Assembly (NCBI GenBank): GCA_965219955.1
Contig: OZ244799.1
Location: 2,176,001 to 2,240,000, forward strand
Direction of reading: 5' to 3'
Length of the DNA: 64,000 nt
Source of the DNA: a bacterium
GTDB taxonomy: Bacteria > UBA8248
Positions within the stretch are counted from its first letter, which is position 1. The number at the start of each line of letters is the position of its first letter. The notes beneath the pieces are model-generated. The model saw only the letters and a list, made by a program, of their open reading frames with translations. It had not been told where the DNA came from and made no database searches. Positions 18,405-20,681 of this stretch are shown one piece after another. The translations under genes and the position numbers were made by a program.

Positions 18405-18788
18405 ATGTCGGATGGAACGGTCACGCTGTTCGATCAATCCCAAAAGAAACCCCAAGCCCTTGAAGGCATTACGGTTACGCCGCTCGCCAACCAGAAGGTG
18501 AGCGAGATTCTCAAGGCGGAAGGCAAGACCGGCCACGGGCTGCGACTGGCCGTCACCGCCGGCGGCTGCTCGGGTTACAACTACGGCCTCTATTTCGAGG
18601 AATCCGCCAACCCTGAGGATAAAGTGTTCTCCGCCGATAGCTTCGACGTGTTCGTGGACCCCCAGAGCTATCCCGTCATCGCCGGAACGGAAATCGACTT
18701 CGTGGACAGCCTCCAGGGCTCGGGCTTCAAGATCAACAACCCCAACGCCATGAACATGTGCGGTTGCGGAAAATCGTTCACTACGTGA
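18405..18788 (+). CDS. iscA: A-type Fe-S carrier (IscA/ErpA, HesB family)
   Basis: GGCSG...Y and NPNA...CGCGKSF motifs. Confidence 0.93.
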   Translation: MSDGTVTLFDQSQKKPQALEGITVTPLANQKVSEILKAEGKTGHGLRLAVTAGGCSGYNYGLYFEESANPEDKVFSADSFDVFVDPQSYPVIAGTEIDFVDSLQGSGFKINNPNAMNMCGCGKSFTT

Positions 18789-18805
18789 TAAAACAATGCC
18801 TTACG

Positions 18806-18838
18806 AGCCCCGGGCATCACGCGCCCGGGGCTTTTTTT
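18806..18838 (+). terminator. Rho-independent terminator after iscA
   Basis: AGCCCCGGGC-loop-GCCCGGGGCT followed by a T run. Confidence 0.85.
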
Positions 18839-18860
18839 GTGACCAACGAGAGACTTCGCC

Positions 18861-20315
18861 GTGAACCGAAACGATAAGACTTCGGCGTGGCGAGCGCCCG
18901 GGGCCGTCGTCCTCGTCTCCTGCTACGAGTTGGGGCACCAGCCCCTGGCCGTCGCCTCGCCCATGGCCTTTTTGCGCGAGGCGGGCTTCCGGCCCTGGGC
19001 GATGGACATCGCGGCGGAGGATTTCTCGCCCGAAAAAATCGCAAAGGCGAAATTCGTCGGCATCAGCGTACCGATGCACACGGCGCTCAGGCTCGGCGTG
19101 GAGGTGGCGGCGAAAATACGCGAGACGAACCCGGGGTGCCATATCTGCTTCTATGGCCTCTACGGCCTGCTCAACAAGGACTATCTTCTTGAAAACGGGG
19201 GAGATTCGGCGGTCGGCGGCGAGTTCGAACTGCCGCTCGTGAAGCTCGTTCAAGGGCTGTCGCAATCCTCGGAGAAGCTCGACGTTCCCGGCGCGGCCAC
19301 GAGAGAGCACACATCCGGCCCGTATCTCGAAAAAATCCCCCTGCTCAAACCTGACCGGGAAGGATTGCCCGCGCTTCAGGCATACGCCCATCTCGTGAAG
19401 GAGGGGCAGCATTATCCTGCGGGAGCCGTCGAGGCGAGCCGCGGCTGCAAGCACTTGTGCCTCCATTGCCCCATTCCGCCGGTTTACGAGGGCCGCTTCT
19501 TCGTCGTGCCCCAGGAGAAGGTTCTGGAAGACATCGAAGACCTGGCGGCGCAAGGCGCGCGCCACATCACCTTTGCGGACCCGGATTTCCTGAACGGGCC
19601 ATCGCATGCGCAAAGGGTCACCCGCGCCATGCACGAGAGGTTTCCCTCGCTCACATTCGACTTTACGGCCAAGGTCGAGCACCTCATCAAGCACGAGGCG
19701 CTTCTGGCGGAGTTCGCAGAATACGGATGCGCGTTTTTCGTCACAGCGGTTGAATCTTTGAGCGACATCGTCCTTGGCCATCTGGTGAAAGGACACAACC
19801 GGGAAGACGTCTTCCGCCTGGTGAAAGCCGCCCGGGAGGCGCGCGTTTCCATCCGGCCGTCTCTGGTCGCATTCACGCCGTGGACTACTGCACAGGATTA
19901 TTTCGATCTGCTTGATTTTATTGAAGAATACGCACTAATCGACGAGGTCGACCCGATTCAGATGGCCATCCGGCTGCTGGTGCCGCCGGGCTCCCATTTG
20001 CTCGAATCACCCCACATGACGAGATACATCACCGGACTCGACGCCGAGAATTTCATCTACCGCTGGGAGCATCCGGACGCGAGAATGGACAAGCTGCACG
20101 AGGAGGCGCTCTTCCTCGCCGAAGATGCGGCAGCGCGCCAGGAGGACGCCGCCGTGACTTTTTCCAGGATTCGCGAATTGGCGGCCGATATTCTCGAACG
20201 CCCCGATCAGGCGCAGCCAAAGGCCGCCTTCGCGCCCGACCGAATCCGCCCGCCTCGCCTGACCGAATCGTGGTTCTGCTGAGCGGAGCCCACCCAGGGC
20301 CAGTTGGCCCTCTGA
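18861..20315 (+). CDS. B12-binding-like radical SAM selenoprotein with CUAEP tail (Sec at UGA 20280-20282)
   Basis: CxxxCxxC (CKHLCLHC) after a B12-binding-like N-terminal domain. Reading through TGA gives ...TESWFC-U-AEPTQGQLAL*, matching the CUAEP/CCAEP-tail radical SAM family. SECIS-like hairpin AGGGCC-AGTT-GGCCCT begins 13 nt after the UGA. Confidence 0.9.
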
Positions 20316-20330
20316 GCCACCGGATACGAC

Positions 20331-20681
20331 TTACGTTAAAACCTGTGAATACGTTTCCGCGTCGAAACCGACGATGAGGGCGTTTCGATGTTTGATGACC
20401 GGCGCCCTGAGCGTGCCCGAGCGGCCCATTAATAAAGCCAGCACGTCTTCGCGCGCAGGGTTTTCCTTTTTGATATTCAGGTGAATCACCTTTCTGCTCC
20501 TGGTCGAATAGACGTCCGTAACGCCGTCCAGAACCGAGTCGACGTTGCTCTCATCCACCACGTCTTTTCTGGAACTGGCCTGCTCGGATACCTCGATACC
20601 ATTTTCCGCAAGAAACGCTTGCGTTTTGACGCAGGTCTTTCAGCCGGAGCGATGGTAATACCAATCCACTGTCTTGGACAT
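20331..20681 (-). CDS. ArsC/Spx-like thioredoxin-fold selenoprotein with UxxC motif (Sec at UGA 20642-20640)
   Basis: ATG 20681 after a GAGGAG RBS gives MSKTVDWYYHRSG-U-KTCVKTQAFL..., in frame with the 76-aa ORF (LMGRSGTLRAP...LIVGF). Hairpin CGCAAG-CGTTT-CTTGCG begins 16 nt after the UGA. Confidence 0.88.

Follow-up and report, generated by a model that had tools for sequence, protein, structure and literature searches.

The locus analysed here raises two linked questions: whether a UGA codon close to the 3' end of a radical S-adenosylmethionine (SAM) enzyme gene ends translation or specifies selenocysteine (Sec), and what such an enzyme might do with a Sec residue placed next to a cysteine at its C-terminus. 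The gene lies in a window of 64,000 nucleotides (contig OZ244799.1, positions 2,176,001 to 2,240,000, assembly GCA_965219955.1) from a bacterium of the lineage UBA8248, whose genome is assembled as a single 4.28-Mb contig. Unless otherwise stated, coordinates are those of the window.

An in-frame UGA and the hairpin behind it

The apparent open reading frame (ORF) on the forward strand (18861–20282) encodes 473 amino acids with the C-terminus ...PPRLTESWFC and is closed by the TGA at 20280–20282. Past this codon the frame continues as GCG GAG CCC ACC CAG GGC CAG TTG GCC CTC, encoding the candidate read-through peptide AEPTQGQLAL (20283–20312), and reaches a second TGA at 20313–20315, a place at which the closest relatives carry TAA and which we take as the true stop. 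The resulting order ...ESWFC-U-AEPTQGQLAL-stop is the one from which the original prediction had argued for a selenoprotein. As predicted from the sequence, it is virtually certain that the UGA at 20280–20282 encodes Sec and that the gene belongs to the family NF040546, named 'CUAEP/CCAEP-tail radical SAM (seleno)protein'. The full selenoprotein coding sequence (CDS) would accordingly occupy positions 18861–20315 of the forward strand, from a GTG start through 484 residues plus stop with Sec at residue 474, and the predicted protein would be 11 residues longer than the apparent ORF, ending in a tail that carries the vicinal pair Cys473-Sec474 (20277–20282, forward strand; TGC at 20277–20279 followed by TGA at 20280–20282).

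With the TGA read as U, the protein scored 662 bits against NF040546 (cut-off 500), its residues 16–483 aligning with model positions 1–467 of 468, and a search at the level of the genome returned one gene copy with 655.4 bits and 1 TGA. Across 80 loci of different species, the codon after WFC was TGA in 53 and TGT or TGC in 24, while 3 loci reached a contig end; the motif W-F-C-[U/C]-A-E-P, read in the window as ESWFC-U-AEPT, was present in 77 of the 77 readable loci. When the window is included, position 473 is Cys in 78 of 78 members and position 474 is specified by TGA in 54 and by TGT or TGC in 24, which bears out the earlier claim that Cys and Sec alternate at the tail of this family. 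In the 52 Sec forms for which 60 nt beyond the TGA were available, the first residue behind it was Ala in 48, Ser in 3 and Thr in 1; the Glu was kept in all 52 (GAG 40, GAA 12), as was the Pro, with all four of its codons in use, and Thr appeared in 49, again through four codons. The Cys forms continue in the same way, as CCAEPT..Q. Comparison of homologous C-termini, which had been recommended as a check, thereby revealed an AEP conserved beyond WFC and not a set of proteins that simply end there.

If the TGA were nevertheless a true stop, the protein would end at Cys473 and the conservation downstream would need some other cause. This seems barely tenable, since 52 species keep the downstream peptide while its codons change synonymously, Cys stands in place of the TGA in 24 of 77 loci, and no opposite-strand gene over 20283–20315 was found among the window ORFs. 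What favours termination comes from the RNA of this one gene. A hairpin at 20296–20311 on the forward strand, starting 13 nt after the UGA and lying within the last codons of the gene, has a 6-bp stem (AGGGCC/GGCCCU) and an AGUU loop (20302–20305) with G as the second loop base, exactly as originally described, and it agrees with the geometric rules of a bacterial selenocysteine insertion sequence (SECIS), which were applied here directly and not through a SECIS program. The hairpin appears in the minimum-energy fold of a 71-nt segment; the fold of that segment is not significant (z = -0.98, with 31 of 200 shuffles folding equally well), and Rfam at gathering thresholds gave no match at the hairpin, its sole match in the window being a tRNA. 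A single sequence proves nothing alone, and hence the case for a SECIS rests on the comparison across relatives.

For this comparison, a hairpin was counted when its stem comprised at least 5 bp, the last base of the 5' arm lay 19 nt past the UGA and the loop opened with AGUU. Of the 52 Sec forms, 47 carry such a stem at the fixed place, as against 1 of the 24 Cys forms and 1.3% of shuffled sequences. Across the Sec-form relatives, stems of 5–7 bp with the AGUU loop were built from 20 distinct 5' arms; positions 1–5 of the stem were paired in 42–45 of 45 distinct hairpins, with compensatory CG<->UA and GC<->AU changes at pairs 2–5. Furthermore, the Gln codon of the loop was CAG in 49 of 49 Sec forms but CAG in 15 and CAA in 8 of the Cys forms, so that the loop is constrained as RNA in the Sec-decoding forms alone. 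RNAalifold, run on the ungapped 52-sequence alignment, yielded a weak consensus (4 pairs, -1.94 kcal/mol), since the 4-nt and 5-nt loops of different hairpins are out of register there, and it was therefore replaced by the register-aware counting of stems given above. This covarying hairpin, almost confined to the TGA forms, speaks against a true stop. The only Cys form that keeps a SECIS-like stem (8 bp, at the usual place) is that of Thermogemmatispora carboxidivorans (locus L093, 9390–9450), with TGT at the position of the TGA; its genome has a Sec-containing SelD, and the locus looks like a recent replacement of Sec by Cys.

The host genome also holds the full machinery for Sec decoding, a further argument against termination. 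It encodes SelB (390.1 bits) adjoining SelA (578 bits), a tRNA-Sec (75.9 bits, anticodon TCA) and SelD (332.7 bits, at C1:2942487–2943449 of the genome contig), which has one in-frame TGA and is itself a selenoprotein. The components on which the original prediction depended, tRNA-Sec and SelB in particular, are consequently all present. Within the phylum of the host, NF040546 matched above its cut-off in 48 of 51 genomes, and every full-length match carried exactly one TGA.

Truncation at the Sec codon, anticipated for standard gene callers, is common in the databases: among the 120 best database homologues, 87 stop at ...W[FY]C, 31 read ...WFCCAEPT... and 2 are otherwise built or partial. 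The description of the protein as a 'hidden' selenoprotein holds in so far as truncated entries dominate, but the family and its Sec/Cys alternation are already known and curated in NCBIfam. The annotation of this gene should read 484 residues with Sec at 474. A comparable record is found on the megaplasmid of Thermomicrobium roseum DSM 5159 (NC_011961.1; locus L118, 7980–9460), a Sec form with the in-frame peptide AEPLEDPSGP and the hairpin GGACCCGUCGGGUCC; this record carries the family name, yet its CDS ends at the TGA. As a cultured, non-pathogenic carrier of the Sec form, T. roseum DSM 5159 is a possible test organism.

Fold, family and kinship with ArsL

The protein comprises an N-terminal Rossmann-like domain, a radical SAM core with a CxxxCxxC motif and the C-terminal tail with Cys473-Sec474. 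The cluster motif CKHLCLHC (C196-x3-C200-x2-C203; 19446–19469, forward strand) lies in a core that scored 51.7 bits against the Pfam family Radical_SAM, and the three cluster Cys are retained by each of the 78 family members and by all four of the ArsL-type proteins discussed below. An AlphaFold2 model built on a 25-sequence alignment reached a mean pLDDT of 91.5 and a pTM of 0.90, while over the last 14 residues (471–484) the mean pLDDT fell to 62 and then 55, so that the tail is probably flexible, as far as the model can tell. The best match among solved folds was AprD4 (PDB 6fd2; E 7e-20, TM-score 0.64–0.70), followed by TsrM, OxsB and MgmA. All four combine a Rossmann-like N-terminal domain with a radical SAM barrel as the window protein does; they share only 14–18% sequence identity with it, however, and do not carry a Cys-Sec tail. 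No solved structure of ArsL was present in the copy of the PDB searched, either by sequence or by fold.

The protein had been described as a B12/radical SAM enzyme, and a cobalamin-dependent radical SAM methyltransferase, with a tail that carries the methyl group or positions the substrate, has to be considered. The Rossmann-like domain has weak matches to the MgmA-type model TIGR04014 (48.5 bits) and to HpnR (46 bits), and the presence of TsrM, OxsB and MgmA among the top structural matches points the same way. The 'B12' label itself is not supported: the Pfam B12-binding domain PF02310 scored 21.5 bits, below its cut-off of 32.1, every match to a B12 family fell far below its own cut-off, and the best structural match is AprD4, which we take to work without cobalamin. 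The much closer relative ArsL is also described without a cobalamin requirement (10.1101/2024.02.01.577332, 10.64898/2026.04.29.721666). Cobalamin-dependent methyl transfer is, on balance, improbable.

Of 185,579 species genomes, at least 583 carry NF040546. The window protein has the C[U/C]AEPT tail, the CxxxCxxC core and the Sec position of this family, and no feature sets the gene apart from it. Three records from metagenome-assembled genomes, L071, L054 and L095, are labelled Enterobacteriaceae, Clostridia and Nitrosotalea but have radical SAM genes that fall in Nitrospiraceae, Blastocatellia and Rokubacteria clades, respectively, and are probably mis-binned or mislabelled contigs. On a FastTree phylogeny of 78 family members, rooted on four ArsL-type proteins, at least nine switches between Sec and Cys are required. 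Exchange of this kind at one site is typical of redox-active positions and favours a redox arm, in which Cys473-Sec474 would form a reversible selenenylsulfide, comparable to the GCUG tail of thioredoxin reductase. Such a tail would deliver electrons or resolve a covalent intermediate in an enzyme of ordinary 5'-deoxyadenosyl chemistry, and a thioredoxin-fold partner would re-reduce it. Retention of the enzyme in genomes that have the Cys form and no SelD also fits this alternative; SelD was not detected above its cut-off in four Cys-form Nitrospirota genomes.

A different role for the pair is suggested by what is known of similar tails. In Haft 2022 (10.1101/2022.07.06.499078), the CUAEP/CCAEP-tail family is named as uncharacterised, SAO-locus proteins, HgcA and MerT-family members are listed as other selenoproteins with a C-U dipeptide, and the vicinal Cys-Sec is proposed to interact with a heavy-metal atom. 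Those proteins share the vicinal pair with the window protein, although their folds appear unrelated to it. The nearest characterised relative of the CUAEP family is its sister family, ArsL. ArsL is reported as the enzyme of arsinothricin biosynthesis that forms the C–As bond by transferring the aminocarboxypropyl (ACP) group; it splits SAM into methylthioadenosine and an ACP species, for which an Fe–C(gamma) organometallic intermediate has been proposed, and removal or mutation of the Cys of its RCCLKC tail abolishes both As(III) binding and product formation (10.1101/2024.02.01.577332, 10.64898/2026.04.29.721666). For PaArsL, the as-isolated protein is reported to have been analysed by ICP-MS and intact-protein mass spectrometry for an adduct on the tail (10.64898/2026.04.29.721666). 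By analogy with these As(III)-binding Cys, the metal(loid)-binding function first suggested for the Cys-Sec tail gains support.

The relation to ArsL was examined with four ArsL-type proteins from plasmid records of B. cereus, P. amygdali (annotated arsL), A. acidocaldarius and P. ananatis, to which the window protein is 30–35% identical over about 400 residues. Both families have the same two-domain build, the same cluster motif and a cysteine-rich C-terminal tail. ArsL (NF040542) was the second-best family for the window protein, with 302.6 bits against a cut-off of 450; the match covers model positions 2–414 of 423 and stops before the tail of ArsL itself, so that the protein has neither the score nor the RCCLKC tail by which ArsL is recognised. 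The four ArsL-type proteins all terminate in ...KRCCLKC, and MAFFT aligned the first two tail Cys of ArsL (the CC of RCCLKC) with Cys473-Sec474, an alignment that sets the candidate Cys-Sec arm beside the substrate-binding Cys of ArsL and argues against a purely redox tail. The tail linker is about 45 residues longer in the window protein than in ArsL, and two cysteines that are near-invariant in the CUAEP family, Cys21 (77/78) and Cys290 (74/78), are missing from all four ArsL-type proteins; Cys96 is conserved to a lesser extent (61/78).

Given this homology, and since a trivalent arsenical could plausibly bind to a vicinal pair, the enzyme could be an ArsL isozyme that makes hydroxyarsinothricin from As(III), or arsinothricin directly from methylarsenite bound on a two-ligand tail; two-cysteine sites select methylarsenite. 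We consider this more improbable still than the cobalamin alternative. Among 81 sources, the surroundings of CUAEP family genes contained an ArsM-like gene in 1–2 and an ArsR-like gene in one, and neither ArsN, aquaporin, ArsQ, ACR3 nor Trx-type ArsC in any of them (0/81), whereas all four ArsL-type clusters that were opened hold arsenic genes (ArsM, ArsQ, ArsN, ArsR, aquaporin, ACR3, ArsC). No matches to ArsM, ArsQ, ArsN, ArsR or aquaporin were obtained in the window. The near absence of arsenic genes around the family disfavours arsenic as the acceptor atom, and the isozyme reading also has against it the score below the ArsL cut-off and the near-universal presence of the gene in its phylum.

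Gene neighbourhood and an ATP-grasp ligase

Upstream of the radical SAM gene, the window contains genes for DnaK and ClpB on the reverse strand and, directly before it on the forward strand, a gene for an IscA/HesB-type Fe-S cluster carrier (18405–18788; TIGR00049, 120.9 bits). The two forward genes are separated by a strong terminator-like hairpin at 18805–18840, with an 11-bp stem containing 9 G-C pairs (18805–18833) and a T7 tail, which suggests that simple co-transcription of the two does not account for expression of the radical SAM gene. The IscA-type gene is context and possibly an accessory to the enzyme; in 11 of 80 loci, distant ones among them, a homologue of it is found close to the radical SAM gene. 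Downstream follow a convergent gene for an ArsC/Spx-family selenoprotein and then a cyclase-like gene, an LLM oxidoreductase and MarR. With the exception of the IscA type, these neighbours are common only to the 3–5 closest relatives and were rejected as partners at the level of the family. Indeed, the context of the window, with an IscA-type gene upstream, an ArsC-family selenoprotein downstream and no ligase nearby, is confined to its own clade within NF040546.

The convergent neighbour (20331–20681, reverse strand) is a thioredoxin-fold protein with an in-frame TGA at 20640–20642 in the motif G-U-K-T-C, which scored 117.9 bits against NF041106, 'ArsC family (seleno)protein' (cut-off 85); the fold of the 60 nt downstream of its Sec codon was not distinctive. 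Only 15 nt separate its stop codon from that of the radical SAM gene. This thioredoxin-fold selenoprotein, with U-x-x-C and convergent placement kept in 5 of 80 loci, would be a candidate to re-reduce the tail if Cys473-Sec474 were a redox arm. However, those five loci are the closest relatives of the window and share synteny over the whole region, so that the adjacency may reflect mere relatedness. As the redox arm would in addition leave the amino-acid ligase partner described below without explanation, we consider it unlikely, although it is the strongest of the alternatives.

Partners at the level of the family were sought by de novo clustering of all ORFs located no more than 5 kb from the radical SAM gene, and the counts given here refer to the 77 loci whose tail could be read. 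The most frequent neighbour was an ATP-grasp L-amino-acid ligase (PF13535 + LAL_C2; 36/77), followed by DUF169 (19/77), IscA-type carriers (11/77), YggX-type iron-trafficking proteins (10/77), and an ATG22-like MFS transporter and a formyltransferase (7/77 each); all these counts are lower bounds, as one flank is shorter than 2 kb in 27 of the 77 loci. The only DUF169 protein of the host genome was discarded as an orthologue of the adjacent type (61.9 bits, against 285–403), and the mention of this domain found in the literature only names it in the HgcA neighbourhood of a Nitrospina.

The ligase lies no more than 5 kb from the radical SAM gene under at least six phylum-level labels and in several gene arrangements. 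Co-occurrence points in the same direction: in a sample of 201 Nitrospirota genomes, the radical SAM gene was found in 7 (all Cys forms) and the ligase in 8, that is, in 7 of the 7 genomes with the radical SAM gene and in 1 of the 194 others. Within the phylum of the window, 46 of 51 genomes have the ligase, and the one genome without any trace of the radical SAM gene (G008) is also devoid of it. The nearest solved relatives of the ligase are BL00235 (E 4.8e-46), then BacD, the alanine-anticapsin ligase. The host genome has one copy (C1:4239359–4240612, reverse strand), about 2 Mb away from the radical SAM gene, in the company of an SDR, a methylmalonyl-CoA mutase and uncharacterised proteins; this copy shares 53% identity with a ligase of the adjacent type and scored 567.7 bits, against 573–695 for the seeds. 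Whereas the window's own family keeps this single, distant ligase, a sister family of the same phylum (G001, G004, G007) has a ligase directly 3' of the radical SAM gene and a second paralogue elsewhere. Taken together, a functional link between the radical SAM enzyme and the ligase appears rather probable for the family, and for this particular genome it can be put forward only tentatively.

ATP-grasp ligases homologous to this partner are also found in three of the four ArsL-type clusters (partner hidden Markov model, E 1e-38, 4e-30 and 8e-23), located at L119 1438–2661, L121 1430–2662 and L122 6566–7771, beside an MFS transporter and ArsM. Both sister families thus combine a radical SAM enzyme with a ligase, which is a frequent neighbour in each. 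A possible implication is that amino acids of the arsinothricin type are likewise converted into peptides. No discussion of such a pairing for ArsL was found in the literature searched; a single paper touches on both subjects, with arsinothricin confined to its reference list.

A candidate reaction for the Cys-Sec arm

Our favoured reading, which we regard as reasonably probable when taken as a whole, is that the window gene encodes an ArsL-like, Sec-tailed radical SAM enzyme whose product is ligated by an ATP-grasp enzyme. By analogy with ArsL, the [4Fe-4S] cluster would cleave SAM at the C-gamma–S bond, and the aminocarboxypropyl group would be moved onto an atom held by the mobile Cys-Sec tail, yielding a non-proteinogenic alpha-amino acid. 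This transfer chemistry, considered on its own, is a tentative proposal to which we would give somewhat less than even confidence. Joining of the product to another amino acid would, in most lineages, fall to a dedicated ligase of the BL00235/BacD type; the two steps, transfer and ligation, could take place in either order. The acceptor atom might be sulfur or another thiophilic element; arsenic is disfavoured by the gene context, and an obligatory role of selenium is excluded by the four Cys-form genomes without SelD. Sec might be preferred over Cys simply as a better nucleophile or ligand at position 474, and upkeep of the cluster would be the task of the Fe-S or iron carriers whose genes lie upstream in 21 of 77 loci.

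Several observations weigh against this proposal. The top fold match, AprD4, carries out canonical 5'-deoxyadenosyl chemistry. The correspondence between the CC of ArsL and the CU of the CUAEP tail, obtained by global MAFFT across a non-homologous linker, is suggestive only, and the two tails differ in that R-C-C-L-K-C offers three ligands and C-U-A-E-P-T two, the third tail Cys of ArsL having no counterpart in the CUAEP tail. Genes for the ligase, DUF169, YggX and the ATG22-type transporter are all lacking within the window, and in a quick ligase tree the copy of the host genome grouped with the distant, non-adjacent copies of the sister family, with a weak support of 30. The co-occurrence counts overstate independence because the genomes are related to each other. 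Moreover, the near-universal presence of the radical SAM gene in its own phylum fits a housekeeping role better than an antibiotic, and no functional study of the CUAEP/CCAEP family was found in the literature searched.

These data have consequences for the family beyond the annotation of a single gene. The ligase partner indicated by neighbourhood and co-occurrence, the lack of arsenic context and the Cys-form genomes without SelD narrow the search for the product. It is even conceivable, although we hold it to be rather doubtful, that the CUAEP enzyme and the ligase constitute a widespread and hitherto undescribed two-step pathway, spread over Nitrospinota-like bacteria, Nitrospirota, Planctomycetota, Acidobacteriota, Methylomirabilota, Chloroflexota, Gemmatimonadota and Poribacteria. 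In it, a C–heteroatom bond would be formed between the aminocarboxypropyl group of SAM and an atom offered by a swinging Cys-Sec arm, and the amino acid so made would end up in a dipeptide. To our knowledge, ArsL is the only radical SAM enzyme of canonical fold known to transfer an aminocarboxypropyl group. If this pathway reading is true, the CUAEP family would provide a second case of this noncanonical, ArsL-type radical SAM chemistry, acting on a substrate other than arsenic, and Sec would function in it as a substrate-holding ligand and not as a redox centre.

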